64,000 bases of DNA from Myxococcales bacterium. GTDB taxonomy: Bacteria; Myxococcota_A; Bradymonadia; UBA7976; UBA1532. Positions within the stretch are counted from its first letter, which is position 1; every line of letters begins with the position of its first letter. The stretch is from assembly GCA_020633435.1 (NCBI GenBank), contig JACKDP010000002.1, positions 631,788-695,787 on the forward strand. Reading direction: 5' to 3'. Below, piece after piece: positions 4,402 to 57,783 of this stretch. Under the pieces are notes generated by a model. That model was given only the letters and a program-made list of their open reading frames with translations. It made no database searches and was not told the DNA's origin. The translations under genes were made by a program, and so were the position numbers.

Positions 4402-5967
4402 ATGTCGCTGGCGCGCTGGTCGTTGCTGTTGGTGCTCGCAGGCTGCGGAGGCACGCGCCCCGGCGCCGGTCTCCCGGCGAGCGGCGGCCCGCCCACCGAG
4501 GAGGCCCCGGCCCAGGCGCTGCCGGCCCCGGGCCGCTTCTTCACCCCCGGCCTGGCCGACTACGCCGGCGCCGAGCGCCTGCCCGCCGACGCCCTCGAGA
4601 CGCGGCTGCGCCAGGCGCTGCAGCAGAGCATCGAGCCGCCGGCGAGCCTGGACTGCCTGGCGCGTGAGTACGCGGGGCGCTTCGCCGCCGACGCCCGCGA
4701 CGCCGATCCGGGCGCCATCCAGGCCATGGCGACGCGCTGCGGCTACTGGAGCCGGCCCGCCCACGTCACGGCCGCGACGGCGCTCTCGGAGGACGCCCTG
4801 CTGGCGCACTTCGGCAAGATCCCGCTGCAGGCCGTGCCGGGCCCCCTCGGCGTGGGCGTGGCGCGCCACCCGGACGGGCGCGTCACGGGCGTGCTCGTCA
4901 TCCCCCCGGGCGAGCTGCGGCTGGAGCCCATCGCCCGAAAGCCGAGCGGTTCCGCGGTGTTGCGTGGCCGCCTCCTCCGCGGTGATGGCGCGCTGGAGGT
5001 CTGGGTGGACGACGGGAAGCCCCGCGCCCTGCCCGTGAAGGCCGACCCGGCGGGGCGCTTCGAGGTCGCGCTGCCGGCGGTGGCCCCCGACGGGGCGCTG
5101 CAGGTGGAGGTCGTCCGGCACACCGGCCGCTTCCGCCGCACGATGGCCCTGCTCACCCTGGGCGTGGGTCGCCAGGATGGCTACGCGGCCCGGCCGCTGG
5201 CCGCCGTCGGTCGACCCGCCGCCACGGCCCTCGTCACGGCCGTGAACCAGGCTCGCCTCGCCGCGGGCCGCCCGCCCCTGCAGCCCGAGCCCGCGCTGCA
5301 CGCCCAGCTCGACGCGTGGATGGATCGGCTGGCCCAGGGCGAGGCCTCCGACGAGCCCCCGGGCATCGTGGACGAGCGCGGCTGGCCCTTCGCCGCGGTG
5401 GGCTACGGCTTCACCGAGGGCGCCGACCCTGGCCAGGCCATCGACCTGCTGCTCGAGACGCCGACGGGGCGAGACGTGCTGCTCGGCGCGAACCTCGACG
5501 AGGTCGCCGTCGGCACCCGGCCCTTCGAGGCCGGCCCCGGCTTCGACGCCGTGATCCTGGGACTGCAGCGGTTCCAGGGCCGCCCGGCCGAGGAGGTGCG
5601 CGCCACGCTCCAGCAGAAGCTCACGGCGGCCCGCGGCGGGCAGGCCCTCACGGCGGCCCCGGCCCTCCAGGCCATCGCCCAGGCCGTCGCCGATCGCGCC
5701 CTGGCCGGCAGCCTGCCCTGGAAGGACGCCGTGCCCGCCGTCATGGAGGTCGTGCGCGCCGAGAAGCCAGTGCGCGGGAACTTCGGCGCCGGCGCCTTCA
5801 CCGTCGTGAACCCGGCCGAGGCCGACACGGCGGGCATGCCCCACGCCCTCGATCCGGGCATGAAGTTCATCGGCATCGGGGTCGCGGCGGGGCCCCTCCC
5901 CGGCGGCGGCATCCCCCGCCACATCATCGTCTACCTGGCGGCCGAGGCCCTGCCGGGGGACGGCTGA
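4402..5967 (+). CDS. lipoprotein with a CAP/SCP/PR-1-like domain, unknown function
   Basis: ATG at 4402 gives the lipobox signal MSLARWSLLLVLAGCGG. The later region TALVTAVNQARLAAGRPPLQPEPALHAQLDAWMDRLAQGE fits the CAP-domain consensus. The ORF upstream of 4402 overlaps the phosphoesterase gene and has no signal peptide. Confidence 0.55.
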   Translation: MSLARWSLLLVLAGCGGTRPGAGLPASGGPPTEEAPAQALPAPGRFFTPGLADYAGAERLPADALETRLRQALQQSIEPPASLDCLAREYAGRFAADARDADPGAIQAMATRCGYWSRPAHVTAATALSEDALLAHFGKIPLQAVPGPLGVGVARHPDGRVTGVLVIPPGELRLEPIARKPSGSAVLRGRLLRGDGALEVWVDDGKPRALPVKADPAGRFEVALPAVAPDGALQVEVVRHTGRFRRTMALLTLGVGRQDGYAARPLAAVGRPAATALVTAVNQARLAAGRPPLQPEPALHAQLDAWMDRLAQGEASDEPPGIVDERGWPFAAVGYGFTEGADPGQAIDLLLETPTGRDVLLGANLDEVAVGTRPFEAGPGFDAVILGLQRFQGRPAEEVRATLQQKLTAARGGQALTAAPALQAIAQAVADRALAGSLPWKDAVPAVMEVVRAEKPVRGNFGAGAFTVVNPAEADTAGMPHALDPGMKFIGIGVAAGPLPGGGIPRHIIVYLAAEALPGDG

Positions 5968-43669: not shown

Positions 43670-44578
43670 TCAAGGCCGCCTTGGAGGCGGCGCGGCCGGC
43701 GGCGCCGCCGAGCCGCTGACGGCCCCGCCCACCGGGGCCCGCACCACCCACAGCCCCGACGCCAGGATGAGCAGCCCGCCGAGCGGCGCGAGCGCCGGCA
43801 GGCGATCCCCCAGCACGAGCGCCCCCGAAGCGACCCCCACCATGGGCTCCAGGTAGGTCAGCACGCCGGCCTTGGCCGCCGAGACGTGCTGCAGGCCCCA
43901 CAGGAAGAAGAGGCCGCCGAGCGTCCCCGCGAGCGCCGCGCCGCCCATGATCCAGACGACGCCCCCCAGCGTCGGCGTCGGCGCCATCAGCGCCACCGGC
44001 AGCAGCAGCAGGCCTCCGATCCAGGTGTGCCAGACGAGCAGCTCGGCGGGCGTGAGCACGCTGCCCGACCGCTTCAAGATGAGGACCTGGGCGGCGTAGA
44101 AGAAGGCGGACGCCGCCCCGAGGAGCCCGGTCAGCGCCGCGGGGCCGATGGCGAGGACGTCGCCGCCGAGGAGCAGGCCGAGGCCGAGCAGCGCCACCGG
44201 CAGCGCCACCACCACCTGCCAGCTCGGCCACCGCCGCAGGATCAGCGGCGATCCCAGGGCCACCAGCACCGGCGCGAGGTAGTGCGAGAGCACCGCCACG
44301 GGGACGGGGCCGCGGTGCAGCGCCTCGAAGTACAGCCAGGCGTTGGCGGCGTCGGTGATGCCCGTGGCCCACAGCGGCCACCAGGCCGCGAAGCCCCGTG
44401 GGATGCGCCGCGGCAGCCAGGGCACCGCGCACGTCCCCATGGTGATGAGCGCGATGCAGCCCGCCAGCGGGCCGGCGATGCCCGAGAAGTGGATGGCCAG
44501 GCCCCACAGCCCCCAGAGCGAGGCCGAGAGGCCGATGGCGAGGCTGCCGCGCAGCTGGAAGTCGGGGGCGGTGGTCAT
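43670..44578 (-). CDS. DMT superfamily transporter (EamA-like, 10 TM helices)
   Basis: 302 aa with ten hydrophobic segments and a duplicated EamA-like organisation (for example AWLYFEALHRGPVPVAVLSHYLAPVLVAL). The 3' end overlaps, convergently, the tail of the preceding repeat-protein region. Confidence 0.8.
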   Translation of the reverse strand: MTTAPDFQLRGSLAIGLSASLWGLWGLAIHFSGIAGPLAGCIALITMGTCAVPWLPRRIPRGFAAWWPLWATGITDAANAWLYFEALHRGPVPVAVLSHYLAPVLVALGSPLILRRWPSWQVVVALPVALLGLGLLLGGDVLAIGPAALTGLLGAASAFFYAAQVLILKRSGSVLTPAELLVWHTWIGGLLLLPVALMAPTPTLGGVVWIMGGAALAGTLGGLFFLWGLQHVSAAKAGVLTYLEPMVGVASGALVLGDRLPALAPLGGLLILASGLWVVRAPVGGAVSGSAAPPAAPPPRRP

Positions 44579-44694
44579 GGCGCCCTCATGCCCGAGGCGG
44601 CGCGCGGACGCAACGACGGCGACACTCCCCCTGGTCCCGGGGGTCCGAAGTGTGGATCATGCGGGGCGACGGGGGCGCGCTCCAGGGAGGGATC

Positions 44695-47600
44695 ATGTCT
44701 GCACGGCCAAACCGGGTAATCCGTATTCTTTTCGCGGCGTTGCTGCCACTCTGGGGCGGCGGCTGCAGCGAGGATGACGGATCGGGGAAGGTCGCAGACG
44801 CGGCCCAGGACGCCGCCCAGGGGCGCCAGGACCAGTTCCGGCCGCAGCCGGACATGCAGCCGTTCGACCTGGCCGTCGTCCCGCCGCCCCGCGACGCGGC
44901 GGTGCCCGACGCCGCGCCGCTGGACGCCAGCCCGCCCGACATGGCCGTGCTGCCGCCCGACATGGCCGTGCTGCCCCCCGACATGGCGGTGTCGCCGCCC
45001 GACATGGGTGCCCCCGACATGGGCTGTGCGGCGCGGGAGACGTGCCATAACGGCATCGATGATGACTGCAACGGCATCGTGGACGACCCGCTCGTCTGCG
45101 ACCAGGAGCTGCCGCCCTGCGTGGCCGACATGCCCTGCTTCACCGGGCTCGTGGGCGTCTGCGCCGTCGGCACCAGCCGCTGCCCGAACGGGCCGGAGGG
45201 CGAGGCGGCCTGCGACGCCCTGGAGCAGCCGGCGGCCGAGGTCTGCGATGGCGCCCTCGACGAGGACTGCGATGGCAACGTCGACGAGGGCTTCGGCCTC
45301 GACGAGCCGTGCGAGGCCGGGGTCGGGAGTTGCCGCGCCCTCGGCGTCTTCGAGTGCGCCCCGGACGGCGGCGCGCGCTGCACCGCCGCCCCGCGGGGCG
45401 CCCGCCTCGAGCGCTGCGATGGCATCCCGGCCGACGAAGACTGCGATGGCACGGTGGACGAGGGCTTCGAGGACCTGGGCCAGCCCTGTCAGGTAGGCCT
45501 GGGCATCTGCGAGGCCGCGGGCGAGATCATCTGCGCGGCCAACGGCATCAGCACGCGCTGCTCGGCGCGGCCCGCGGGCCCCGGCAGCGAGTTGTGCAAC
45601 CAGGCCGACGATGACTGCGATGGCCGGGTGGACGAGGTCTTCCCGGAGCTGGGCCAGGCCTGCGTGCTCGGCCTCGGGGCCTGCCGCGCCGAGGGCGTGC
45701 GCGTCTGCTACAGCGAGAACCGGACGTACTGCAACGCCCAGCCGGGCCTGCCCGACCTGGAGACGTGCAACGCCATCGACGATGACTGCGATGGCAACAC
45801 CGACGAGGGCCCCGATGGCCGCCCGCTGACGGTGGCCTGCTACGGCGGCCCCGAGGGCACCGCCGGCGTCGGCCTCTGCCGCCAGGGTCGGCGGGCCTGC
45901 GGGGCCCAGGGGCTCGGGGCCTGCGAGGGCGAGGTCGATCCCGCCGAGGAGATCTGCGACGGCAGCGACAACGACTGCGATGGCCGCGTGGACGAGGGGG
46001 TCGACGGGGCGCCCATCCGCCAGCCCTGCTACGCCGGGCCCGACGGCACGGCGGGCGTGGGGGCCTGCCGCCAGGGCAACCGGACGTGCCGCAACGGGGC
46101 GCTGAGCCTCTGCGAGGGCCAGGTCCAGCCCCGCGTCGAGATCTGCGACTCCCTCGACAACGACTGCAACGGCCAGGTCGACGACGTGGCGGTCGGCGGC
46201 TGCGACTGCGTCCCGCTGGTGCGCCGCGCGTGCTACTCGGGGCCCGACGGCACCGAGGGCGTCGGTCGCTGCCGGGCGGGCAACCAGAACTGCCGCGCCG
46301 ACGGCACGGGCTACGGCGAGTGCTTCGACGAGTTCACGCCGAGCGCGGAGGCCTGCAACGGCGAGGACGACGACTGCGACGGCCGGGTGGACGAGGAGGT
46401 CGACGGCATCGGCGCGGCGTGCAACGTGGGCCTGGGGGCCTGCGGCGCGGCGGGCGTCTTCATCTGCGATCCGGCGCGGGGCCCGCGCTGCAGCGTGAAC
46501 GCCGGCGAGCCCAACCCCGAGACCTGCGATGGCATCGACAACGACTGCGACGGCGCCACGGACGAGCAGTTCCGGCTGGGCCTGGTGTGCCGGCTGGGCA
46601 TCGGGGCCTGCGCCCGCCAGGGCGAGGTCATCTGCGCGCCGGATGGCAGCACCTCCCAGTGCTCGGTGGAGCCTGGGCAGCCCGAGGAGGAGCGCTGCGA
46701 TGGCCTCGACAACGACTGCGACGGGCGCAGCGACGAGGGCCTGAACCTGGGCCTGCCCTGCGAGGTCGGCGTGGGCGCCTGCCTCGCGCGGGGTGTCCGC
46801 GTCTGCGGCAACGACGGGGTGGTGAGCTGCTCGGTCGCCCCGGGCGCCCCCCAGGCCGAGCGGTGTGACAGCCGCGACAACGACTGCGATGGCTCGACGG
46901 ACGAGGGCTTCGGGGTCGGCGACGCCTGCACGGCGGGCCAGGGCGTCTGCGCCCGGGACGGCCTGCGCCAGTGCTCCGCCGCCGGCGGCGTGGAGTGCAG
47001 CGCCGCGCCCGCGCCCGGCGGCGCGGAGCTCTGCGACGGCGAGGACAACGACTGCGATGGGCGCACCGACGAGGACTTCGCGCTCGGCGTGGCCTGCGCC
47101 GCGGGCGTCGGCCAGTGCCGCGCCAACGGCCAGACGATCTGCGCCGCCAACGGCCAGGGCACGACGTGCGGGGCCCAGCCCGGCGCGCCAGCAGCCGAGA
47201 CGTGCGACGACCGCGACAACGACTGCGATGGCCGCGCCGACGAGGACTTCGACCTGGGCAGCGCGTGCACCAACGGCGTGGGCGCCTGCTCGCGGGCCGG
47301 CGTGACGCGGTGCCAGGGGGGCGTGGCCGCCTGCGACGCGGTGCCAGGCCAGCCCCGGGCCGAGACGTGCGAGGGCACCGACCAGGACTGCGATGGCCGC
47401 ACCGATGAGGGCTTCCCCGTCGGCGACCGCTGCGAGGCGGGGGCGGGCGCGTGCCTGGAGGTCGGCGTGACGCGCTGCCTGGCCAACGGCCAGATCGAGT
47501 GCAGCGCCCGGGCCCATGACCCCGAGCCCGAGCTCTGCGACAGCCGCGACAACGACTGTGATGGGCGCGTGGACGAGGGCTTCGCGCTGGGCCAGGCGTG

Positions 47601-50600
47601 CAGCCGGGGCCAGGGCATCTGCCTGCGGGACGGCACCACGCGCTGCGGCCAGAACGGCCAGCTCGAGTGCAGCGCCCTGCCGGGCGTCGGCCGGGCCGAG
47701 ACGTGCGACGGCCGCGACGAAGACTGCGACGGCCGCACCGATGAGGGCTTCCCGGTGGGCCAGCCCTGCGAGGCGGGCGTGGGCGAGTGCTACCGGGCCG
47801 GGATGCTGCAGTGCGCCATCGGCGGCGGCACCCAGTGCAGCGTCCAGGCCGGCGCCCCGCGGGCCGAGCGCTGCGACGCGGTCGACAACGACTGCGATGG
47901 GCGGTCCGACGAGGGCCTGAACCTGGGCCAGGCCTGCATCGCGGGCGCGGGCCAGTGCGAGGCCGAGGGCACGCTCGCCTGTGGCCAGGCCGGCGCGGTC
48001 ATCTGCCAGGCCGAGCAGCCGATGGGCGGCGCCGAGGAGTGCGACGACCTCGACAACGACTGCGATGGCCGCGTCGACGAGGGCGGCGTCTGCCCCGACC
48101 TGGAGCCGCCGGACGTCACGCTGCTGCTGGAGCCCGTCTTCGTGCTCTTCAACGGCCTGGCCCGCGTCACGGTGACGGTCACCGATGACCAGGATCCCGA
48201 TCCCCAGGTCACCGCGACCATCGACGGGATGCCCATCCCCCTCGACGCCAACGGCCAGTACCTCTACCAGGCCAACGAGGCCGGGGCGCACGAGGTCGTG
48301 GCCGTCGCGGTGGACGCCGCCGGCCGCCGGGGCGAGGCGCGCGACTACTTCCGCGTCCAGAACCTCGACGACAACGAGCCGCCGGTGGTGCGCATCATCG
48401 CGCCCGCCGACACCAGCGAGCTGACGGGCGTGACCGAGATCCATGGCCGCCTGGAGGACCCGAACTTCTTCTCGTGGAAGCTCGAGATCAGCTTCGACCA
48501 GCAGAACTGGCAGGTCATCAACACGGGCATGACCAGCGGCCCCGACGTCATCGTGGGCTCGATCGATCCCACCGTGATGGCGCCTGGCTTCGTCTACGTG
48601 CGCCTGACCGGCGAGGACGAGAACAGCCTCAACCAGTTCCAGATCGTCACCTACCGCGTGCCGGACGGGGTCTCCCTGGGCGAGACGAAGCTGGGGATCC
48701 GCGACTTCGAGATGCCGGTGAAGGGCTTCTCGCTGGCCTTCGACCGCGAGTACGACAGCCGCCGCAAGTACCTCGACGGCGACTTCGGCTTCGGCTGGAA
48801 GCTCACGGCCACCCGCGTGGAGGTGCGCGAGGACCTGCAGAGCAACGTCATGGTCGCGCTGCCCGATGGCCGCCGCGAGGTCTTCGCGATCGCGTACAAC
48901 TTCCCGGGATTCTTCCCCTTTGGGACGATGAGCTACGTCGCGCCGCCGGGCGTGTACTCCACACTGACGTCGCCTCAGGCCTGCGCCGTGGCCAACACGG
49001 CCCAGGGCGTCGTCTGCTTCGACACGGGCCGGCCGCCCTCTTTCAGCGTCTCGAACTACGTGCTGACCACCCAGGACGGCACCCGCTACGAGATCCATGA
49101 CCAGCGCGGCCTGGACCGGCTCACCGATCGCGAGGGCAACCAGTTCACGTTCGCCCGCGACCGCATCACGTCCAACGTCGGCGTCGAGATCACGATGGCT
49201 CGCGACGCCTTCGGGCGCATCACGTCCATGACGGACCCGCGGGGCGGCATCATCGAGTACCGCTACGACGCGGTGGGCAACCTGACGGAGGTCGAGGATC
49301 AGGCGGGCGGCGTGCAGACCTACGTCTACGACGACGAGCACGGCCTGCTGCGCGTCCTCGGGCCGGACGGCAACCCGGTCATCCGCACCGAGTACGACGA
49401 GGACGGCCGCAAGGTCCGCGACGTCGACGCCCTCGGCAACGAGACCGTCTACGACTACGACTTCGACAACCGCATCCAGACGGTCACCAACCGCCGCGGC
49501 GACGTCATCGTCTACGAGTACAGCGAGATCGGGCAGATCCTGTCCCGCGTCGACGAGATGGGGAACGAGGCCACGTTCGACTACAACGCCCTCGAGCAGC
49601 TCGTCGGCGAGACCCTGCCGGATGGCTCGACGTTCGGCTACGCCTACGACGCCCGGGGCAACCAGACGCGGGTGACGCTGCCGACCGGCGAGTCCAACAC
49701 CTTCGCCTTCGACGCCTTCGGGCAGCCCGTCGCGATGACGGACCCGGCCGGGCACGTCAACCGCATGACCTACGACGCCTCGGGGCGGCTGACGTCCATT
49801 GAGAACGGGGCCGGCCACGTCCTGACGCTGGAGTACGACGCCAACGGCAACCGCCAGGCGGTCGTCGAGCCCGACGGCCAGCGGACGACCTACGGCTACG
49901 ACGCCCTCGGCAACATCACGAACATGGCGCGGGACGGCGGGTTCACCCGGACGTACGCCTACAACGCCGCCTCCGAGATGACGCGGCTGGTGGACTCCGA
50001 CGGCAACGCCATGGACCTGGACTACGACGCGGTGGGCCGGCTGCAGCGCGTGGTCGACCCGCTCGGCGGCGAGATCATCGCCGAGCGCGACGGCCTGGGG
50101 CGCATCACCCGCCTGACGGACGCCGATGGCTCGGTTCGCCGCTACCGCTTCGAGCCCCGCGGGCTGATGGAGGCCATCACCGACCCCAACGGCGGCGAGA
50201 CGACCTACGCCTACGACGCCGAGGGCGCGCTCGTCGGCCTGACCTACCCGGATGGCGCCGAGGTCCAGCTCACCCGCGACGCGGGCGGGCGCATCACCTC
50301 CCGGCGCGATCCGCTCGGCAACGTCGCCAGCTACCAGCTCGACGCCATGGGCCGGGTCATCAGCCGCACGGACCGCAACGGCGATCCCATCGTCTACGAG
50401 TACAACACGCTCGGTGACATGGTCCGGCGGAGCGACGCCGACGGCGAGACGACCTACGAGTACGACACGGTCGGCCGCCTGACGCGGGTCGTCAGCATCG
50501 AGGACGTCATCGTCTACGAGTACGACGAGGACGACCGCCTCGTGGCCGAGGAGCCCCTGGCCGGCTTCCGCCTGGAGCACACCTGGGACGCCGCCGCGCG

Positions 50601-52212
50601 CCGGGCCGCCACCCGCGGCCCCGAGGGCGAGTCCACGTTCGACTACGACGCCGGCGGCCGCCTGGCCACCGTGGACGACCCCGTCCTCGGCCCCATCGAC
50701 TTCGTGCGCAACCCCGAGGGGCGCCTGACGGGCATCCGCTACCCCAACGGCGTGGCCATCGACTACACCTACGACGCCATGGGCCGCCCCGTCCGCTGGG
50801 AGGCCCGCGCCGCGGGTGGCGCCGTCGTGGCCGGCGAGACGTGGACGTTCGACGCCGTCGGCCGCCCCACCCGCGTCGAGCGGGAAGACGGCCGCACGTT
50901 CGAGCTGACCTACGACGCGGCGGGCCAGATCACCCGGTCCGTCCTGCGCACCAACGGCGCCGTCACGCGGGACGTGGCCTACACCTACGACGCCCGCGGC
51001 GGCATGACCTCGCGCACCGTCAACGGCCAGCTCGCCGCGCACCAGCTCGACGCCGACCAGCGCCTCACCCGCGACGGCACCTGGACGTACCGCTACGACG
51101 CGGCCGGCAACCTGGTGGAGCGCACCCGCCTCGATGGGGCCGGGCGTGAGGCCTTCACCTACGACGCCGAGCGCCACCTGACGTCGTTCGCGCGCTTCAA
51201 CGGCCAGGGCGTCCAGCAGGCCGGCGTGATCTACCGCTACAACGGCCAGGGCGAGCGCGCCGCGCGCGTCGAGGGCGGCGTCGAGGAGCAGTACGCGACC
51301 AGCTTCGGCGAGCGCGGCTGGGTGCGCAGCCCGGCGGGCCAGACCACCCAGCGCTTCGTCTACGGCGACCAGTCCGACCAGGCCCTGGCCCTCGACAAGC
51401 CCGACGGCCCCGTCTACTTCGCCCTCGACGGCCGCGGCAGCGTGGCCGCCGCCTTCGACGGCGCGGGTCAGCTCGTCGGCCGCTACCTCTACGACGACTT
51501 CGGCGCCCTGCTCGACCAGGCCGGCCCCTTCACCTCGCCTCTGGGCTTCGAGGGCCGGCCCCGCGACCCGACGACGGGCCTCTACGACTTCCGCGCCCGC
51601 AGCTACGACCCGGCGGCGGGCCGCTTCCTCCAGCAGGACCCCGAGTCGGGCAGCCTGCAGCGGCCCATCACCCAGCACCCCTACCTGTATGGCGCCAACA
51701 GCCCGTGGTTCTACCGCGATCCGAACGGCCGGGCGGCGGCCATCAGCTACGCCTTCCTGTCGAGCCGCTTCGTCACGGGCTCCGGCAACGTGAACACGCC
51801 GAGCCATGGCGAGCTGCTGGGCGCGTTCATCGGCTTCATGCACGGCTTCTCGGCGGGCGCCTTCGTCTTCCTGGCCAACATCCTGGAGCTGAGCGGCACC
51901 GGGCAGGACATCAAGACCATCTGGGGCATCGCGACGAGCCGCACCAAGACGAAGCTCGACGAGATCGCCAACCTCCTCGGCCGCGGCGCGGCCCTGGACG
52001 ACAGCGGCTTCGCCGGCGCTTTCGTGAACGGCGCCAAGTTCCAGGTCGGCTTCAAGTTCTCCCTGAAGCTGCCCAAGCCCGTCAGCAAGGGCATCGCCCT
52101 CGCCGGCGGCAAGACGTCGAAGGGCGTCTGGGCCATCGAGAAGAGCGGTGGCGGCTTCAAGGAGGGCAACAAGCAGTTCCTGAACTTCCTGGAGCAGGTC
52201 GGCCCGCAGTAG
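44695..52212 (+). CDS. Rhs/YD-repeat polymorphic toxin lipoprotein (2505 aa): lipobox signal, PPDMAVL repeats, about 18 MopE-type Cys-rich repeats, YD-repeat shell, RHS repeat-associated core, C-terminal toxin domain of unknown type
   Basis: GGGAGGG RBS. The signal is MSARPNRVIRILFAALLPLWGGGCS. About 18 repeats carry E-x-CDG-x-DNDCDG-x-x-DEGF...C...G-x-G-x-C (for example ERCDSRDNDCDGSTDEGFGVGDACTAGQGVCARDG). There are dozens of YD repeats (YDAVGNLT, YDDEHGLL, YEYDTVGRLT and others). The RHS core is GLYDFRARSYDPAAGRFLQQDP...HPYLYGANSPWFYRDPNG, followed by about 160 aa of non-repetitive sequence with a hydrophobic stretch (LLGAFIGFMHGFSAGAFVFLANILEL). Confidence 0.85.
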   Translation: MSARPNRVIRILFAALLPLWGGGCSEDDGSGKVADAAQDAAQGRQDQFRPQPDMQPFDLAVVPPPRDAAVPDAAPLDASPPDMAVLPPDMAVLPPDMAVSPPDMGAPDMGCAARETCHNGIDDDCNGIVDDPLVCDQELPPCVADMPCFTGLVGVCAVGTSRCPNGPEGEAACDALEQPAAEVCDGALDEDCDGNVDEGFGLDEPCEAGVGSCRALGVFECAPDGGARCTAAPRGARLERCDGIPADEDCDGTVDEGFEDLGQPCQVGLGICEAAGEIICAANGISTRCSARPAGPGSELCNQADDDCDGRVDEVFPELGQACVLGLGACRAEGVRVCYSENRTYCNAQPGLPDLETCNAIDDDCDGNTDEGPDGRPLTVACYGGPEGTAGVGLCRQGRRACGAQGLGACEGEVDPAEEICDGSDNDCDGRVDEGVDGAPIRQPCYAGPDGTAGVGACRQGNRTCRNGALSLCEGQVQPRVEICDSLDNDCNGQVDDVAVGGCDCVPLVRRACYSGPDGTEGVGRCRAGNQNCRADGTGYGECFDEFTPSAEACNGEDDDCDGRVDEEVDGIGAACNVGLGACGAAGVFICDPARGPRCSVNAGEPNPETCDGIDNDCDGATDEQFRLGLVCRLGIGACARQGEVICAPDGSTSQCSVEPGQPEEERCDGLDNDCDGRSDEGLNLGLPCEVGVGACLARGVRVCGNDGVVSCSVAPGAPQAERCDSRDNDCDGSTDEGFGVGDACTAGQGVCARDGLRQCSAAGGVECSAAPAPGGAELCDGEDNDCDGRTDEDFALGVACAAGVGQCRANGQTICAANGQGTTCGAQPGAPAAETCDDRDNDCDGRADEDFDLGSACTNGVGACSRAGVTRCQGGVAACDAVPGQPRAETCEGTDQDCDGRTDEGFPVGDRCEAGAGACLEVGVTRCLANGQIECSARAHDPEPELCDSRDNDCDGRVDEGFALGQACSRGQGICLRDGTTRCGQNGQLECSALPGVGRAETCDGRDEDCDGRTDEGFPVGQPCEAGVGECYRAGMLQCAIGGGTQCSVQAGAPRAERCDAVDNDCDGRSDEGLNLGQACIAGAGQCEAEGTLACGQAGAVICQAEQPMGGAEECDDLDNDCDGRVDEGGVCPDLEPPDVTLLLEPVFVLFNGLARVTVTVTDDQDPDPQVTATIDGMPIPLDANGQYLYQANEAGAHEVVAVAVDAAGRRGEARDYFRVQNLDDNEPPVVRIIAPADTSELTGVTEIHGRLEDPNFFSWKLEISFDQQNWQVINTGMTSGPDVIVGSIDPTVMAPGFVYVRLTGEDENSLNQFQIVTYRVPDGVSLGETKLGIRDFEMPVKGFSLAFDREYDSRRKYLDGDFGFGWKLTATRVEVREDLQSNVMVALPDGRREVFAIAYNFPGFFPFGTMSYVAPPGVYSTLTSPQACAVANTAQGVVCFDTGRPPSFSVSNYVLTTQDGTRYEIHDQRGLDRLTDREGNQFTFARDRITSNVGVEITMARDAFGRITSMTDPRGGIIEYRYDAVGNLTEVEDQAGGVQTYVYDDEHGLLRVLGPDGNPVIRTEYDEDGRKVRDVDALGNETVYDYDFDNRIQTVTNRRGDVIVYEYSEIGQILSRVDEMGNEATFDYNALEQLVGETLPDGSTFGYAYDARGNQTRVTLPTGESNTFAFDAFGQPVAMTDPAGHVNRMTYDASGRLTSIENGAGHVLTLEYDANGNRQAVVEPDGQRTTYGYDALGNITNMARDGGFTRTYAYNAASEMTRLVDSDGNAMDLDYDAVGRLQRVVDPLGGEIIAERDGLGRITRLTDADGSVRRYRFEPRGLMEAITDPNGGETTYAYDAEGALVGLTYPDGAEVQLTRDAGGRITSRRDPLGNVASYQLDAMGRVISRTDRNGDPIVYEYNTLGDMVRRSDADGETTYEYDTVGRLTRVVSIEDVIVYEYDEDDRLVAEEPLAGFRLEHTWDAAARRAATRGPEGESTFDYDAGGRLATVDDPVLGPIDFVRNPEGRLTGIRYPNGVAIDYTYDAMGRPVRWEARAAGGAVVAGETWTFDAVGRPTRVEREDGRTFELTYDAAGQITRSVLRTNGAVTRDVAYTYDARGGMTSRTVNGQLAAHQLDADQRLTRDGTWTYRYDAAGNLVERTRLDGAGREAFTYDAERHLTSFARFNGQGVQQAGVIYRYNGQGERAARVEGGVEEQYATSFGERGWVRSPAGQTTQRFVYGDQSDQALALDKPDGPVYFALDGRGSVAAAFDGAGQLVGRYLYDDFGALLDQAGPFTSPLGFEGRPRDPTTGLYDFRARSYDPAAGRFLQQDPESGSLQRPITQHPYLYGANSPWFYRDPNGRAAAISYAFLSSRFVTGSGNVNTPSHGELLGAFIGFMHGFSAGAFVFLANILELSGTGQDIKTIWGIATSRTKTKLDEIANLLGRGAALDDSGFAGAFVNGAKFQVGFKFSLKLPKPVSKGIALAGGKTSKGVWAIEKSGGGFKEGNKQFLNFLEQVGPQ

Positions 52213-52237
52213 GCCGGCCGCCCCGGCTGGAGGTCCT

Positions 52238-52729
52238 ATGTCGGTCTTGCTCTCGGTGGCGCTGCTGGCGCCGCCCACCTGCGCCCCCGAGGCGCTCGCC
52301 AAGGTCGAGGAGGCGCTGGCGCAGGCGCCCGCGAAGCGTGCCCACGCGCTCGCCCTGCAGGGCGTGTCGGAGGCCTGCGCCCTGCCACCGAAGCTGGCGG
52401 CGGGCGTGCGGGGCGTGGCGGCCGCCCCACCCGACCAGGTCGCCCTGCTGGAGGCGCGGTGCATCACCCAGGCGACGGACCTGTGGACGCAGGCCTGCCC
52501 GGCCGGCGTGAAGGTCTTCGCCCAGCTCGCGAGCGCGGCCCCGGACGCCCGCCCGGCGCTCCTCCTCGCCGCCTGCCAGCTCGACCGCTTCGGCCTCACC
52601 CTGGCCCAGCTGCAGGGCGGGGACGTCTCGCCGCTGGGCGTCATGCTGGCCGCCGTCGTGCACGGTCCAGGCCGCGCCGCCCTCGTCCAGGCCCTCGTGC
52701 TCTCCCCCCGACCGGAGGCAACCCCTTGA
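52238..52729 (+). CDS. small protein (163 aa) immediately downstream of the Rhs toxin gene; candidate cognate immunity protein
   Basis: Starts 26 nt after the Rhs stop with a GGAGG RBS. The Ala/Leu-rich sequence has conserved Cys residues and a hydrophobic N-terminus (MSVLLSVALLAPPTC). The position is the one usually occupied by RhsI-type immunity genes. The stop overlaps the TTG start of the next gene. Confidence 0.45.
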   Translation: MSVLLSVALLAPPTCAPEALAKVEEALAQAPAKRAHALALQGVSEACALPPKLAAGVRGVAAAPPDQVALLEARCITQATDLWTQACPAGVKVFAQLASAAPDARPALLLAACQLDRFGLTLAQLQGGDVSPLGVMLAAVVHGPGRAALVQALVLSPRPEATP

Positions 52730-54201
52730 TTCGCCAGCTCTTTCTCCTCGCCGCCGTCGCCAGCCTCGTCGGCTGCGGCGGCGCTGCTACGCGGGCCCCG
52801 CGCCCCGACCTCGTCATCCTGCAGCTCAACGACGTCTACGAGGCCAACCCCGTGGGCGGCGAGGGCGGCCTGGCCCGGGTGGCGACGCTGCGCAAGCGCC
52901 TGGAGGCCGAGGGCGCGCCCGTGGTCACCGTCCTCGCCGGCGACTTCCTGAGCCCCTCCGCCATCGGGCTGGCCAAGGTCGACGGCGAGCGCCTGGCGGG
53001 CAAGCAGATGGTCGCCGCCTTCAACGCCCTCGGCCTCGACTACGTGACGTTCGGCAACCACGAGTTCGATGTCTCCGAGGCCCAGCTCCTCGCGCGCATC
53101 GGCGAGTCGAAGTTCACCTGGTTCTCCGGCAACGTCCTGCGGGGCAGCGGGGAGCCGTTCCCGGGTGTGCAGCCCCGCATCGTCCGCACCGTGCAGACGC
53201 CCTCCGGCGCCTGGACGCTGGGTCTGCTGAGCGTGACGCTCAACAGCAACCCCCACGACTGGGTCCGCTACGACGCCGACTACGTCGCGGTGGCGAAGCG
53301 CGAGGTCGAGGCCCTCAAGGCCGCCGGCGCCGACCTGATCGTCGCCCTCACCCACCTCGACCTGGACGACGACGAGGCCATCGCCGAGGACGTCCCGCCC
53401 GTGGACTTCATCCTGGGCGGTCACGAGCACGAGAACGTCCGCATCTATCGCGGCCGGGACTTCACCCCGGTCATCAAGGCCGACGCCAACGCCCGCACCG
53501 TCTACGTCCACCGCCTGACCCGCGGCGACGGCGGCGCCCCCACCCTGACGTCCGAGCTCGTGCGCATCGACGCCGCGATCCCCGACGATCCCGAGGTCGC
53601 GGCCGCCGCGAAGACGTGGACGGACCGCGCCTTCGACAGCTTCCGGGCCGACGGCCTGCAGCCGGAGCGCGTCGTCACCACCGCCTGGGTCGACCTCGAC
53701 GGCCGCGAGGCCAGCGTCCGCAACCGCAGCACCGACCTCACCCGGCTGCTCGCCGAGGCCGTCGCGGCGGGTGGCCAGGACGCCCAGGTGGCCCTCTACA
53801 ACAGCGGCTCCATCCGCATCGACGACACCATCCCGGCCGGCACCCCGGTCACGGAGTACGACGTCCTGCGCATCCTGCCGTTTGGTGGCCAGGTGGTCAC
53901 GGTCACCCTCACCGGCGCGGTCCTCAGCCAGGTCCTGGACGCCGGCCTCGCCAACCGCGGCAAGGGCGGCTACCTGCAGACGCTCGGCGTGGCCGGGACC
54001 CGCGGCGCCTGGACGCTCGGCGGCGCCCCTCTCGTGGCCGACCAGCCGTACCGCGTGGCGCTCAACGACTTCCTGCTGACGGGCAAGGAGGACAACCTGG
54101 GCTTCCTGAAGCCCGACGCCGAAGGCGTCAGCGACCGGCACGATGGCCCCGACCTGCGCCGCGCCTTCATCGACCGCCTGTCCCGGGGCGCCGACGGCTG
54201 A
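52726..54201 (+). CDS. bifunctional metallophosphatase/5'-nucleotidase (UshA-like) lipoprotein
   Basis: TTG start with a GGAGG RBS. The lipobox signal is LIRQLFLLAAVASLVGC. The calcineurin-like motifs ILQLNDVYE, GDFLSPS, GNHEFD and GGHEH are followed by a 5'-nucleotidase C-terminal domain. Confidence 0.8.
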   Translation: MIRQLFLLAAVASLVGCGGAATRAPRPDLVILQLNDVYEANPVGGEGGLARVATLRKRLEAEGAPVVTVLAGDFLSPSAIGLAKVDGERLAGKQMVAAFNALGLDYVTFGNHEFDVSEAQLLARIGESKFTWFSGNVLRGSGEPFPGVQPRIVRTVQTPSGAWTLGLLSVTLNSNPHDWVRYDADYVAVAKREVEALKAAGADLIVALTHLDLDDDEAIAEDVPPVDFILGGHEHENVRIYRGRDFTPVIKADANARTVYVHRLTRGDGGAPTLTSELVRIDAAIPDDPEVAAAAKTWTDRAFDSFRADGLQPERVVTTAWVDLDGREASVRNRSTDLTRLLAEAVAAGGQDAQVALYNSGSIRIDDTIPAGTPVTEYDVLRILPFGGQVVTVTLTGAVLSQVLDAGLANRGKGGYLQTLGVAGTRGAWTLGGAPLVADQPYRVALNDFLLTGKEDNLGFLKPDAEGVSDRHDGPDLRRAFIDRLSRGADG

Positions 54202-54243
54202 GACCGGCGCGGTCCCGACCCGGGTCCCGACGAGGAGCTGCGA

Positions 54244-54897
54244 ATGGCCCGGCCCGTCCCCAACCTGCACCCCGACGCCGCCCACCCCGGCGCCGCCCCC
54301 GACTGCGCCGCCTGCGACGGCTCGGGCTGGGTCGCGCTGGACGAGCCGACGATCACCGTCGCCCCGTGCGCCTGCGTTCAGGTCTGCCCCCGCTGCGGTG
54401 GGAGCGGCCGGCTCGCTGGCGGCCTCGAAGCGTGCGCCTGCCACGCCGGCGCGGGGCGCATCGACCTGCTCAACGCCGCGGGCCTGCCCGCCCTGGATGC
54501 CCCCCTCGACCCCCCATCCCCCGCCCTGTCGGCGTGGTTTCAGCGCTATCGACCGGAAGATGGCTGGCCCTGGCTGCTCGTCACCGGCCCATCGCCCGGA
54601 CCAGTGACCGCCCAGCTCATCCGCCTCATCACCGGCGTCGGCGTACCCACGGCCCGGGTGACCGCCCACACCGAGACCGTCGACTGGCGTGCCTGGCGTC
54701 GGCTCGTGGTCTGCTACGACCTCGCCCTCCACGGACCGCGGCGCGCAGCCCGGCTGGTCGACACCTGCGCCGACCACGGCCTGACGCTGGTGCTCTGGTC
54801 GCCCATGGGCCTCTACCCCTCCGCCGGCCCCGGCCTCGACACGGCCATCGGCGACGACGCCGCCGCGACACTGCTCGAGCGCTGCGCCCTCGCCTGA
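54244..54897 (+). CDS. hypothetical protein with two DnaJ-type CxxCxGxG zinc-finger motifs
   Basis: CAACDGSGWV and CPRCGGSGRL. GC3-rich codon usage. No other recognisable domain. Confidence 0.5.
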   Translation: MARPVPNLHPDAAHPGAAPDCAACDGSGWVALDEPTITVAPCACVQVCPRCGGSGRLAGGLEACACHAGAGRIDLLNAAGLPALDAPLDPPSPALSAWFQRYRPEDGWPWLLVTGPSPGPVTAQLIRLITGVGVPTARVTAHTETVDWRAWRRLVVCYDLALHGPRRAARLVDTCADHGLTLVLWSPMGLYPSAGPGLDTAIGDDAAATLLERCALA

Positions 54898-54930
54898 GCC
54901 AGCCCAACCCGCGCCCGCCCGGGTCCTACC

Positions 54931-55052
54931 GGTCCTACCGGGTAGCCCGGCGAGCGGGTGCACCCGTGCCGCGCTGCTGGAATCTGGCCATCCCGGTCAT
55001 ACCGGGTAGTCCGGTGGAATGGTGCAACCGTGCCGTGGGACTGGAATCTGGC
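54931..55052. repeat. two tandem ~58-bp direct repeats (54931..54988 and 54995..55052, ~80% identical), each containing the palindromic core CCGGT-nnn-ACCGGG/TACCGGGTA; REP-like element adjacent to the IS200-like transposase gene
   Basis: Copy A is GGTCCTACCGGGTAGCCCGGCGAGCGGGTGCACCCGTGCCGCGCTGCTGGAATCTGGC. Copy B is GGTCATACCGGGTAGTCCGGTGGAATGGTGCAACCGTGCCGTGGGACTGGAATCTGGC. They sit in the convergent intergenic region 3' of the RAYT gene, with an extra GGTCCTACC duplication at the left edge. Confidence 0.65.
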
Positions 55053-55222
55053 GGGGCGGGCTGGGTGTCGTGGGGCGCGTTGGAGGCCTGGCGACCCGTC
55101 AGGCACCGGCGACAGCGTCGCCGTGCGCGACCCAACCGCCGCCACGGGGGCTTCCGGGCGCACGTTCCCTGAGCGCCGGACCGGCTGCGCGCTTCAACGA
55201 CTTCGAGGGCGCCGGCGGGCGG

Positions 55223-56158
55223 TCAGGCCGCGCCGGCTCGGGGTCCCCTCGGGCGGGCGAAGGCCGGGGGCAGCGTGTGCGGCGGCCACGGGATCATCAG
55301 CTGCGTCGGGTCGGCCTGCCAGGCGTGGAAGGCCCGCGTCGCCCGCGAGTAGGCTTCGCGCAGGGCCTCATGGGCGTCGCGCCACTCCTGGTGGTGCTCC
55401 GGCGGGCCATGCACCACCGGGGCGGGACTCCGGTCTCGCACGCGCGGCTTCGTCATGGGGTCGAGGCGCCGCAGCGTCTCGGGATCGGGGATGCGCACGC
55501 CGGCCTTCTTCCGCTTCGGCCGCGCCTGGCTGGCCACGTCGTCAGCGAGCTGCCACATCAGCGCGCGGTGGTCCTTCGGGCTCAGGGCCTCGAGGCCGGG
55601 CAGCCGGTCGATCCGCACCGTCAACGTCCTGGGGTCCTGGCCGGCGTACGCAAACACGCCCTCCACCGGCTTGCCGAACAGCAGGAACGGCGTCGAGCAC
55701 GCGAAGAAGTCGTCGGCCGGGTGCCGCACCAGGAACTGCGCCGTGGCCTGGCCCATGATGTACTGCAGCCGCTGCAGGGCGTGCTCCTCGGTGGTGATCT
55801 GGATGCAGTGGTTCTGCTCAAGCAGGCTGCCGGTTCGCCCCAGCAACTGGTTGATCCGCCTGGAGATTTCTCGCAGCGTCCACTCCAGGAAGGCGCTCTT
55901 GTGGGCCAGGGTCGGCGCGCCGATGAGCAGGTGCAGGTGGTTGGACAGGAAGTGGAAGCCGTAGACGTCGATGAGCGGGAACTTCTCCTGGGCGCGGGCG
56001 AGGACGCCCTGGAGGATCTCGACGCACCTCTCGGTGGGGATGAAGGCGAAGCGGTCGTCGACGACCTTGCTGGTGATCTCGTAGAGCATCATCAGGACGC
56101 CGAGCCGGGCGCTCATGAAGGCGCGGTGGACGAGCTCGATCCTCAACTTCTGGGCCAT
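55223..56158 (-). CDS. IS200-like / REP-associated tyrosine transposase (RAYT, Y1 HUH family)
   Basis: From the internal ATG (MAQKLRIELVHRAF...). The HUH motif is FLSNHLHLLIGAP, and the catalytic Tyr region is GSLLEQNHCIQITTEEHALQRLQYIMGQATAQFLVRHPADDF (the W/Q-x-x-F-H-D...YI-x-x-NP-V pattern). The N-terminal 78 codons of the long ORF are Arg/Gly-rich and probably untranslated. Confidence 0.7.
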   Translation of the reverse strand: MAQKLRIELVHRAFMSARLGVLMMLYEITSKVVDDRFAFIPTERCVEILQGVLARAQEKFPLIDVYGFHFLSNHLHLLIGAPTLAHKSAFLEWTLREISRRINQLLGRTGSLLEQNHCIQITTEEHALQRLQYIMGQATAQFLVRHPADDFFACSTPFLLFGKPVEGVFAYAGQDPRTLTVRIDRLPGLEALSPKDHRALMWQLADDVASQARPKRKKAGVRIPDPETLRRLDPMTKPRVRDRSPAPVVHGPPEHHQEWRDAHEALREAYSRATRAFHAWQADPTQLMIPWPPHTLPPAFARPRGPRAGAA

Positions 56159-56406
56159 GGCGGGAGCCTCCGTGGTGAGTGCTCCCTTGCTTTCGGTCAG
56201 TCGCGGCGCGTGTCGCAGGATTTCTGAGAAAAAGTGCATCGGGCGACGCCCGCACGCTGTGGCCGCCGCTCCCCGCCGGGCCTGCCAACCTGGGACGCGC
56301 GCGCCCCACTTCGCCGGCCCACGCACCACCCCAGGCCCCCCCACGCGCTGGCACGGACGCTGCTTTCGCTCCCCCGCCGACAGGGAACGCACACCCGGGG
56401 GACTCG

Positions 56407-57783
56407 ATGCGCGCCGCTCTCTTCCTCGCTCCGCTCCTCGCCCTGGCCGGCTGCCAGGACGCCCGCCTCCGCAGCAGCGGCCCCAGCGGGCTGGTGGTGC
56501 CCACGGACGCGGGCGTGCCCCCCGAGAACAAGCCCGCCGTCGGCGACCCGCGGGACGTCGACGCGGGCCCGCGCCCCCTGCCCCCCCGACCGGACGCCGC
56601 CGTCTCCCCGCCGCCGCCCGAGCCGGACGCTGCCGCTGCGCCGCCGCCGCCCCCCGACTTCCCCGACGGGCAGGACGCGTGCGGCGACATCCGGGTGGCC
56701 GAGAAGGTCTACCACGGCACCCGCGAGCCCTCGGCCCTGCCCCTCACGCCCGGGCAGATCCTGGCGGTCGGCAGCTTCAACGGCTGCTCCGGCACCCTCA
56801 TCGCCGAGCGCTTCGTGCTGTCGGCCACCCACTGCGGCCACCGCCGCGGCGCCGAGTTCTGCATGGGCCCCGATCCCGATCGCCCCAACGCCTGCCTGCG
56901 TGCCGTGGCCGTGCACGAGAACCCCCGCGCCGACCAGACCATCCTCGAGATGGACCGCGACGCCAGCAGCGTGCTCCCCGGCGTGCAGCCCATCCCCATC
57001 CTGACCGAGGTGATGGACAACGGCTGGATCGGGCGCACCGCCGAAGCGGCGGGCTACGGCCAGACCGAGTACGGCGGCTTCAACACCCGCTGGTTCACCG
57101 CCGAGCCCATCGTACGGCTGTCCAGCGACACCGTGACCATCGACGGCCAGGGCCGGCGGGGCGTCTGCTTCGGTGACTCCGGCGGGCCCGTCATGGTGCA
57201 GGCCAGCGATGGCTCGGTGCGGGTGGCCGGCGATCTGAGCAACGGCGACGGGTCGTGCGTGGGGCGCGACAACTACACGCGCACCGACGTCTTCGTGGAC
57301 TGGATCGAGGGCTTCACGGGCCCGACGGTCGTCGACGGCGCGCCGTGCGGCCCCGTCACCGCCGAGGGGCGCTGCCTCGATGGCGTGGCGCAGTGGTGCG
57401 AGGGCGACGAGCTGCAGACCGACCGCTGCGCCGTCCGGTGCGGCTTCGATGCCCGCGCCGATGGCTACCGCTGCTTGCAGGGCGCCGACCCCTGCGGCGG
57501 CTACGACGCCGCCGGCGCCTGCGACGGCCAGACCGCCCGCTGGTGCGAGGCGGGCGCCCCCCGGGCGCGCGACTGCGGCGCCTGCGGCGAGTCCTGCGCC
57601 GTCGTCGCGGGCGTGGGTGCCGCCTGCACCGCCGACCCCTGCGCCGGCCTCGACTACCAGGGCCGCTGCACGGGCGACACCGCCGAGTGGTGCGACGACG
57701 GCGAGCTGCACACCGAAGACTGCGGCCAGCGCGGGCAGCGCTGCGGCTGGGTGAATCAGGAGATCGGCTACTTCTGCAACTGA
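56407..57783 (+). CDS. trypsin-like S1 serine protease lipoprotein with four C-terminal Cys-rich ~30-aa repeats
   Basis: Lipobox signal MRAALFLAPLLALAGC. The catalytic triad is present: LSATHC (His), D, and GDSGGPV (Ser). The C-terminal repeats follow C-x-x-G-x-C-x-G-x-x-A-x-WCE-x-G-x(5)-DC. Confidence 0.8.
   Translation: MRAALFLAPLLALAGCQDARLRSSGPSGLVVPTDAGVPPENKPAVGDPRDVDAGPRPLPPRPDAAVSPPPPEPDAAAAPPPPPDFPDGQDACGDIRVAEKVYHGTREPSALPLTPGQILAVGSFNGCSGTLIAERFVLSATHCGHRRGAEFCMGPDPDRPNACLRAVAVHENPRADQTILEMDRDASSVLPGVQPIPILTEVMDNGWIGRTAEAAGYGQTEYGGFNTRWFTAEPIVRLSSDTVTIDGQGRRGVCFGDSGGPVMVQASDGSVRVAGDLSNGDGSCVGRDNYTRTDVFVDWIEGFTGPTVVDGAPCGPVTAEGRCLDGVAQWCEGDELQTDRCAVRCGFDARADGYRCLQGADPCGGYDAAGACDGQTARWCEAGAPRARDCGACGESCAVVAGVGAACTADPCAGLDYQGRCTGDTAEWCDDGELHTEDCGQRGQRCGWVNQEIGYFCN

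Follow-up and report, generated by a model that had tools for sequence, protein, structure and literature searches.

What kind of element is formed by a divergent tyrosine transposase gene and the tandem repeat that follows it? The question is raised by a 64,000-nucleotide (nt) stretch of DNA, called the window here in its whole length, from the Myxococcales metagenome-assembled genome (MAG) H6706, in which two tandem repeat units lie behind the gene for a 311-amino-acid (aa) protein (exact look-up: MCB9546087.1, H6706_09565). An earlier note, made from the sequence alone, had proposed a domesticated, single-copy REP-associated tyrosine transposase (RAYT) with the repetitive extragenic palindromes (REP), or bacterial interspersed mosaic elements (BIME), that such enzymes disseminate. 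Our analysis leads to another answer: the window holds one intact copy of an insertion sequence (IS)-like element found in a small Myxococcota lineage, and its tandem unit is a module linked to the gene, not a dispersed REP. We consider it probable that the locus represents a multicopy IS-like element which belongs to the Y1 HUH superfamily and has escaped annotation; its cis-site, linear and about 50 nt long, would lie on its 3' side in one to three tandem copies. Coordinates are collected in Table 1.

Identity of the encoded protein

Curated protein models score the gene product below threshold, both for Pfam Y1_Tnp (PF01797; 13.6 bits, cutoff 23) and for NCBIfam REP_Tyr_transpos (NF047646; 18.9 bits, cutoff 80), and a search of the PDB with the single window sequence found nothing. 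Its placement in the family is therefore based on motifs, on a profile match and on the predicted fold. The earlier note had recognised the HUH motif and the catalytic-tyrosine helix of IS200/RAYT enzymes, and an alignment of 26 homologues confirms both: S72, H74 and H76 of SNHLHLL and Y133, M135, G136 and Q137 of LQYIMGQ are near-invariant, and the HUH (H74-L-H76) and Y133-IMG-Q137 motifs are at least 90% conserved among the 26 sequences, the tyrosine motif having the form Y[IL]MGQ. A profile built from this alignment matches the TnpA of ISDra2 (2xm3) with an E-value of 0.0018, the HUH and Y..Q motifs both being aligned. The AlphaFold2 model is confident (pLDDT 90.1, pTM 0.88), and in a Foldseek comparison with the PDB its top 28 matches are all Y1 transposases, the first of them E. 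coli TnpA_REP (4er8), the structure against which the earlier note had suggested the protein should be compared. The predicted model has the Y1 transposase fold. As judged from this model, the gene encodes a genuine, very divergent IS200/RAYT-type tyrosine (HUH) enzyme, with a predicted structure nearest to RAYT.

The C-terminal half, mainly two long helices, has no structural match; it is conserved among the 26 homologues as well, in the motifs RPKRKKAG, SPAPVVHG and IPWPPxTLPPAFAR. Measured against the signatures of Quentin et al. 2018 (PMC6006769), Y-x3-Q belongs to class 1 (IS200), NHLH is similar to that of class 2 or 3, and length and tail match none of the 12 subclasses. An exhaustive profile search defines a wider family of about 310 aa; clustered at 50% identity, it has 358 clusters with E<=1e-30, a number that rises to 1,480 with E<=1e-10. 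Of the best 150 relatives listed, most are 300-330 aa long and span both domains, several more distant ~310-aa relatives pass PF01797 at 30-36 bits, and JGI labels some relatives RayT or 'Transposase IS200 like'.

Copy number and dispersal

The gene had been expected to be single-copy, and the earlier note itself had set multiple copies against its own proposal. H6706 contains at least 19 distinct family accessions or locus tags over all clusters; the 90% cluster of the window protein alone has five H6706 proteins, and one family protein appears under two accessions, that is, in two identical copies. The window has only one family copy. A scan of species-representative genomes yielded 41 loci, 40 of them on many contigs of the MAG ABC2.71 (JAWKQS01). 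These 40 copies group into subfamilies whose nearest members are 88-99% identical in DNA, and BLAST similarity between loci is limited to the gene and its immediate surroundings, with unrelated flanks. About 20 of the 40 have an intact open reading frame (ORF) of ~310-325 aa, the remainder being frameshifted or truncated, and relatives are mostly found on metagenome contigs of 1-4 kb, as is typical of repeats. A search for orthologous flanks found the window's neighbouring genes at none of the 40 ABC2.71 loci.

RAYT genes are typically single-copy and without close duplicates (Bertels et al. 2017, PMC5581495). The combination of multiple copies, close duplicates and decayed copies is thus the pattern of an insertion sequence and not that of a RAYT. 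The other possibility named in the earlier note, an ordinary active IS, holds as far as the multiple near-identical copies go, but the protein is double the normal length, and neither subterminal hairpins of the IS200/IS605 type nor terminal inverted repeats (TIRs) were found.

A linear module downstream of the gene

The tandem repeat reported behind the gene is real, although its period is 64 nt and not ~58 bp: Tandem Repeats Finder (TRF) places 1.9 copies at 54929-55052 (period 64, 80% matches, score 164), and a repeat search aligns 54922-54985 with 54986-55049 at 77% identity. Its conserved core, TACCGGGTAG / TACCGGGTAGYCCGG, occurs only at these two tandem sites in the window, with 0.2 occurrences expected by chance. 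Read on the gene strand, the repeat contains a linear module of ~50 nt, ATTCCAG..GCA..TGCACC..ACCCGGTAG, with the consensus ATTCCAGCC-N5-6-GCA-N4-6-TGCACC-N10-12-(A/T)ACCCGGT(A/C)G(G/C). The embedded palindrome that had been described, TACCGGGTA, is the most conserved block of this module and has a near-palindromic core, TACC-G-GGTA.

TRF found similar repeats in the downstream regions of many of the loci, and a module profile, obtained from a seed alignment by iterated nhmmer searches (cutoff E<=0.05), gave 76 matches in 492,644 bases, with best E-values down to 1e-10. The great majority (63 of 76) lie downstream of the gene and on its strand, in 38 of the 41 loci, as a single module in 16 loci, as a pair in 19 and as a triplet in 3, the first module starting 179-262 nt past the end of the protein match (median 192, 38 loci). 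Two further matches are the window's own pair, the only ones in the 64 kb. Five, all from a single subfamily (L001, L024, L026, L031 and L033), precede the ATG by 120-200 nt in the same orientation, and five more lie beside partial or duplicated gene copies. The last match is an orphan on the opposite strand (L027:3592-3641). The layout of gene and module recurs in independent ENA contigs with H6706-type genes (L043, L044 and L069). That the repeats belong with the gene, as the earlier note had assumed, is therefore well founded, modules being present downstream in 38 of 41 loci on the gene strand. Their dissemination as REP/BIME by a RAYT does not agree with what we see, namely 75 of 76 modules adjoining gene copies or fragments, in a partial test covering the window and another MAG.

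Seen in the window alone, with only two copies at 77-80% identity, the repeat might have passed for a fortuitous and functionless local duplication in an intergenic region. With the motif recurring in an identical place and orientation at 38 of 41 loci, as well as in independent metagenome contigs (E-values as low as 1e-10), this explanation has virtually no credibility left.

In loci L001 and L024, a block that begins precisely with the upstream module and closes with the second downstream one is 92.7% identical, indicating that direct module copies enclose the unit of that subfamily; at the window copy the upstream module is missing. Short tandem reiterations of the module's 3' tip (..CCGGTAG..), in units of 9-40 nt, are common and begin with GGTAG or GGTCG. 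In the window, 21 nt separate the end of the resulting CCGGTAGGA array from the convergent neighbour's stop codon. Tip reiterations are also present in L001, L024, L038, L006/L027, L031 and L069, the last of which has three extra copies of GCGAGCGTACCCGGTAGGA (3600-3760).

Whether such modules fold was examined in several ways. RNAalifold predicted 0 base pairs on 63 modules, which show no covariation, and single modules had a mean minimum free energy (MFE) z of +0.19 relative to dinucleotide shuffles. A hand-picked GCA/TGC stem paired in 64.7% of cells, compared with 63.7% in shuffles, and the 40 nt after GTAG folded no better than control 40-mers (-12.5 vs -13.2 kcal/mol). The module is a linear sequence motif and not a hairpin. 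The units and their tails fold no better than shuffles or controls, and the imperfect palindromes in inverted orientation that a REP system would lead one to expect are replaced by non-hairpin repeats, all direct on the gene strand. No TIRs emerged from 39 loci either, where the best inverted 16-mers had 13.05 matches against 12.97 in controls; in the window itself, two inverted 18-nt stretches (55154-55171 / 56381-56398) had looked like a TIR, but with the 39-locus test equal to the control we put them down to chance. A sigma-70 promoter scan found none, and the module was rejected as a sigma-54 promoter on inspection by eye, the GG-N7-GC spacing being wrong.

These results bear directly on the proposal of a domesticated single-copy RAYT (TnpA_REP) that spreads REP/BIME palindromes. 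It can draw on TnpA_REP being the best structural match, on the presence of GTAG in the module and on the REPtron-like arrangement of GGTGCCAGACACCT around a distant relative, P0102, in L067. The gene, however, is multicopy with close duplicates, its modules are gene-linked, direct and one-sided, hairpins are not in excess, and the tyrosine motif is Y-x3-Q and not the Y-x3-NP of class 2 TnpA_REP (PMC6006769). A scan of JGI metagenomes, a collection from which the lineage seems absent, with a degenerate module pattern gave 19 matches, about the chance level, none of them with a gene or profile match. We regard this proposal as very unlikely for the window locus.

The relative in question, P0102 (~313 aa; L067, ENA contig k141_870471), is flanked by inverted copies of the hairpin-forming GGTGCCAGACACCT, three upstream (+) and two downstream (-), with two more in the next intergenic region. 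The L067 sequence has 8 matches to it, in the regions 2795-2903, 4119-4192 and 5293-5348, where 0.04 would be expected. This arrangement is REPtron-like, unlike that of the window. L067 also contains a stretch, CCAGACACC..TGCACC, loosely similar to the window module. Another distant relative, P0061, has no flanking repeats. The ~310-aa family seems to cover both REP-like and IS-like lifestyles.

The gene core and its leader

Between close copies, conservation climbs steeply at ~70-100 nt ahead of the ATG, remains at 95-100% across the whole gene and falls off from about +35 to +110 past the stop codon. The gene core thus delimited is ~1.05-1.15 kb long and comprises an AT-rich palindrome, a leader with a hairpin, the ORF and ~40-100 nt of 3' sequence; between the window and L001 identity is 82% over 55182-56234. 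Similarity between copies begins at the AT-rich palindrome in all subfamilies, two of which (including subfamily A) have a long form, ACTTTTTTC-N~20-GAAAAAAGT, and others a short one, TTTTTCAGAAAA. Past the stop codon, a GTGCGYCC box and a GCNCC-7nt-GGNGC hairpin recur in subfamily A, by our reading of the alignments. The modules are non-hairpin; the left-edge palindrome and small GC hairpins ~30-95 nt past the stop codon are at most candidate ends.

The 6-bp-arm hairpin GGGAGC-n13-GCTCCC just 5' of the gene was found as the earlier note had described it, and the window has the most stable version among the leaders (MFE -16.1 kcal/mol, z -3.7; mean z of all leaders -0.73). The same topology, a purine-rich/pyrimidine-rich hairpin, is present in 29 of 29 distinct leaders, with arms that vary by subfamily: GGGAGC/GCTCCC in the window, and GGAGAG/CTCTCC, AGGTGG/CCGCCT or GAGGA/TCCTC. 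RNAalifold on a MAFFT alignment of the leaders did not call the hairpin. Judging from the leader sequences, it is probably a conserved feature of translational control and not an IS end. IS200 has a leader hairpin over its ribosome-binding site, and the hairpin of the window family would likewise restrain translation.

Just upstream of the core, the window has the region's only terminator-like match (56236-56249, -), a hairpin GCGTCGCCCGATGC with ACTTTTTCTC behind it. Transcription entering from outside could be stopped there; other copies show no enrichment of a comparable hairpin. Insertion beside terminator hairpins was also considered and rejected, the 40 nt before the T-run having an MFE of -14.3 vs -13.2 in controls.

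Between core and module lies a spacer with a GC skew of -0.22 in the 90 nt before the first module (36 loci), compared with 0.00 in controls, and its opposite strand has a G-quadruplex (G4)-type motif in 22% of loci vs 1% of controls. The window reads GGCGGGGCGGGCTGGGTGTCGTGGGGCG on the + strand at 55050-55077. The spacer could be a Rho-utilisation-like tract or a G4.

Apparently different histories of gene and module

If the element is IS-like, as we favour, the module would be both its cis-acting site and its 3' end, where the enzyme would bind and would nick or rejoin one DNA strand. It would recognise this site as linear sequence and not as a hairpin, possibly via the extra C-terminal domain. 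The upstream and downstream modules of the one subfamily would be the counterparts of the left and right ends (LE, RE) of IS200/IS605, and reiterations of the CCGGTAG tip would be footprints of repeated processing there. By analogy with known elements, the family may move by IS200-like single-strand transposition, with cutting and rejoining, by nick-stimulated copying between copies, or by both.

Several points weigh against this interpretation. Neither transposition events nor empty sites, circle junctions or a target-site rule were observed, and the ends are undefined to the base. The upstream module is found in one subfamily only (5 loci) and is absent at the window copy, and the evidence on dispersal comes from the window and from ~430 kb surrounding the gene copies of a second MAG. 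Hairpins are not in excess in the module or its tail, whereas DNA hairpins are, to our knowledge, what RAYTs and every Y1 HUH transposase of characterised mechanism recognise. Furthermore, the ratio of nonsynonymous to synonymous divergence (dN/dS, omega) among paralogues within subfamilies is 0.03-0.19 (dS 0.02-0.25), and values this low between copies are unusual for selfish repeats. Finally, similarity of the gene does not carry over to the module: in ABC2.71, first modules are on average 58% identical (range 40-79%) where the genes of a pair share at least 96% identity (n=56), and modules are 55.5% identical where the genes share less than 80% (Spearman 0.30). A simple copy-and-paste of a unit of gene plus module does not predict this decoupling. 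From these comparisons, gene core and module array appear to have different histories, possible sources of the discordance being gene conversion among old cores, movement of a core cassette to module sites, local diversification and partial homogenisation of repeats by assembly polishing.

Assembly needs to be kept in mind here. In short-read ENA contigs whose proteins are identical, or near-identical within one 90% cluster (L042-L045, L069 and L070), two left flanks are joined to three downstream regions in varying combinations, and the left part of L006 corresponds to L004, its right part to L027. Recombination has taken place across the 1-kb repeat, be it in the short-read assemblies or in the genomes. 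We rejected an apparent 'hypervariable zone' between L043 and L044 as untrustworthy, the contigs being chimeric across the repeat, and likewise rejected the short ENA contigs as a basis for arguments on empty sites and linkage.

The first of these sources leads to a resident multigene family, in which old copies are kept under selection, gene conversion homogenises their cores, and the module has a regulatory role as a 3' untranslated region, in termination or in protein binding. It would fit the strong purifying selection between paralogues, cores 96-99% identical next to a saturated spacer and modules, a similarity edge that is sharp on the left and fuzzy on the right, the C-rich, rut-like spacer between stop codon and module, and the upstream module missing from most copies. 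It fits poorly with the retained catalytic HUH/Y residues of a DNA-cleaving enzyme, with 40 copies in unrelated contexts of which about half are decayed, and with the absence of the window-locus flanks from all 40 ABC2.71 loci; a non-mobile origin also leaves the arrival at dozens of sites unexplained. A resident family of this kind seems to us unlikely, if worth keeping in view.

Alternatively, the ~1.1-kb core could be a mobile or homing cassette and the modules its landing pads (att-like targets or solo ends), with the enzyme nicking the module and the core being copied alongside. The decoupling of gene and module similarity would follow naturally, as would core edges that are constant across subfamilies and genomes, from the T-run palindrome to about +40/+100. 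Module sites lacking an intact gene also exist, as the orphan at L027:3592-3641 and as module pairs at L037:8384-8496, and at ~1 orphan per 400 kb tens of unoccupied sites per genome would be permitted. Yet ~100-130 nt of unrelated spacer between core and module is unlike precise site-specific insertion, orphans are far rarer than occupied modules in our sample, L001 and L024 share spacer and modules along with the gene, and neither hairpins nor defined core ends have been demonstrated. We find this explanation doubtful.

A variant, which we judge improbable, is that the HUH enzyme nicks linear modules and in doing so drives copying of the gene cassette between module sites by homing or gene conversion, or locally diversifies the zone of spacer and module. 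If it were true, nick-driven homing or local diversification would be a propagation mode undescribed for Y1 HUH elements, and an unstructured ~50-nt site would be read through an added C-terminal domain in place of a DNA hairpin.

Surroundings of the window locus

The 311-aa gene is flanked on both sides by + strand genes. Its convergent 217-aa neighbour has a weak, sub-threshold match to the DnaJ CXXCXGXG zinc finger (20 bits, cutoff 32.7) and is otherwise uncharacterised. A stop-free frame of 3,462 aa on the minus strand (44575-54963) overlaps + strand genes; most likely it merely reflects the ~70% G+C content and is not a gene. An Rfam scan of 54000-57000 at E<=1 gave no match, nor did PADLOC, PHROGs and a plasmid tblastn.

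Table 1. Features of the window locus and of the 311-aa protein; the sequences of the leader box, the AT-rich palindrome and the box in the 3' core end are given on the gene strand.
Feature	Position	Strand	Details
Gene for 311-aa Y1 HUH protein	55223..56158	-	intact ORF; ATG at 56158, stop codon 55225-55223
Module copy 1, gene-proximal	54998..55047	-	ATTCCAGTCCCACGGCACGGTTGCACCATTCCACCGGACTACCCGGTATG; nhmmer E 4.3e-7; start 176 nt past stop codon
Module copy 2, distal	54934..54983	-	ATTCCAGCAGCGCGGCACGGGTGCACCCGCTCGCCGGGCTACCCGGTAGG; nhmmer E 2.7e-6
Reiteration of module 3' tip	54919..54943	-	CCGGTAGGA; ~2.2-2.6 copies; TRF period 9
Variable spacer	55050..55153	-	C-rich on gene strand, G-run-rich on + strand
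Conserved 3' core end past stop codon	55154..55222	-	small hairpin AGCGC..GCGCT (55172-55193); box ACGTGCGCCCGG (55154-55163)
Leader hairpin GGGAGC-n13-GCTCCC	56162..56186	-	3 nt before ATG; encloses, and appears to sequester, Shine-Dalgarno GGAGG
Conserved leader box	56192..56218	-	CTGCGACACGCGCCGCGACTGACCGAA; near-invariant in 28 aligned leaders, three assemblies
AT-rich T-run/A-run palindrome	56219..56235	-	ACTTTTTCTCAGAAATCC; left edge of conserved core
Convergent neighbour, 217 aa	54244-54897	+	stop codon 54895-54897
Divergent neighbour, trypsin-like protease gene	56407-57783	+	
Catalytic domain of the protein	N-terminal ~155 aa		H74, H76, Y133, Q137
C-terminal helical extension of the protein	~155 aa		helices 194-219 and 253-282; basic motif RPKRKKAG

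Significance and comparison with known systems

Family copies are nearly all annotated as 'hypothetical protein', and with the sub-threshold Pfam and NCBIfam scores this makes them invisible to IS annotation, so that 20-40 copies per genome escape it in this Myxococcota lineage. A large Y1 family with a linear, non-hairpin module and a protein of doubled size would broaden the known modes of DNA choice, and its enzyme might possibly serve as a new 'HUH tag' that joins single-stranded DNA in a sequence-specific manner. On a practical level, the 1-kb repeats break or scramble short-read assemblies and are candidate hot spots of rearrangement. Furthermore, as the wider family has REPtron-like members, the lineage may show a transition between IS-like and REP-like lifestyles.

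Several known groups share part of these features. TnpAY1 class 3, from Planctomycetes, Acidobacteria and Proteobacteria, is intermediate between IS and REPtron, with a median length of 178 aa, Y-x4-Q and atypical secondary structures with a CnGA foot in up to ~600 copies per genome (PMC6006769). The window family has in common with it an NH.H HUH motif, a W[TA] motif and a Y..Q-type motif, and differs in having Y-x3-Q, 311 aa, no structure and gene-linked modules. The TnpAY1 subclasses 2.1/TIRYT and 2.3 are long proteins (238-325 aa) with large C-terminal domains and without REP hairpins; a genome can contain over 5 copies of subclass 2.3, and TIRYT genes are flanked by terminal inverted repeats (Quentin et al. 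2018, PMC6006769). A long Y1 protein with an extra C-terminal domain and no association with REP hairpins is thus not peculiar to the window family, which is set apart by 20-40 copies in subfamilies that are 88-99% identical and by missing the inverted repeats of TIRYT, the subclasses in turn having Y-x3-NP, NH[VY]H and helix-turn-helix-like or other tails.

RAYT/TnpA_REP, the enzyme of the REPtron (PDB 4ER8), is the best structural match, with 155 residues aligned. Both systems have sequence-specific repeats beside the gene, the window repeat contains GTAG, a tetranucleotide that E. coli REPs conserve at their foot, and distant ~310-aa relatives show a REPtron-like arrangement (L067). The window family differs in its multicopy gene, in a tyrosine motif that ends in Q and not NP, and in repeats that are non-dispersed, non-palindromic, non-inverted and one-sided.

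The comparison with IS200/IS605 (IS608, ISDra2) shows differences as well. The window protein has 311 aa with a conserved C-terminal helical domain as against ~130-155 aa, it falls under the Pfam Y1_Tnp threshold, and it has NHLH instead of DH[VI]H. The conserved flank of its element is a linear 3' motif of ~50 nt in one to three tandem copies, without detectable hairpin, most copies are without a 5' counterpart, and there is no tnpB. Otherwise both have highly similar multiple copies alongside decayed ones, no terminal inverted repeats and a leader hairpin over the ribosome-binding site, and one subfamily of the window family is bounded by similar direct sequences in the manner of LE and RE. 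At the level of the enzyme, the two share the Y1 HUH fold and the combination of HUH with Y-x3-Q (class 1, PMC6006769).

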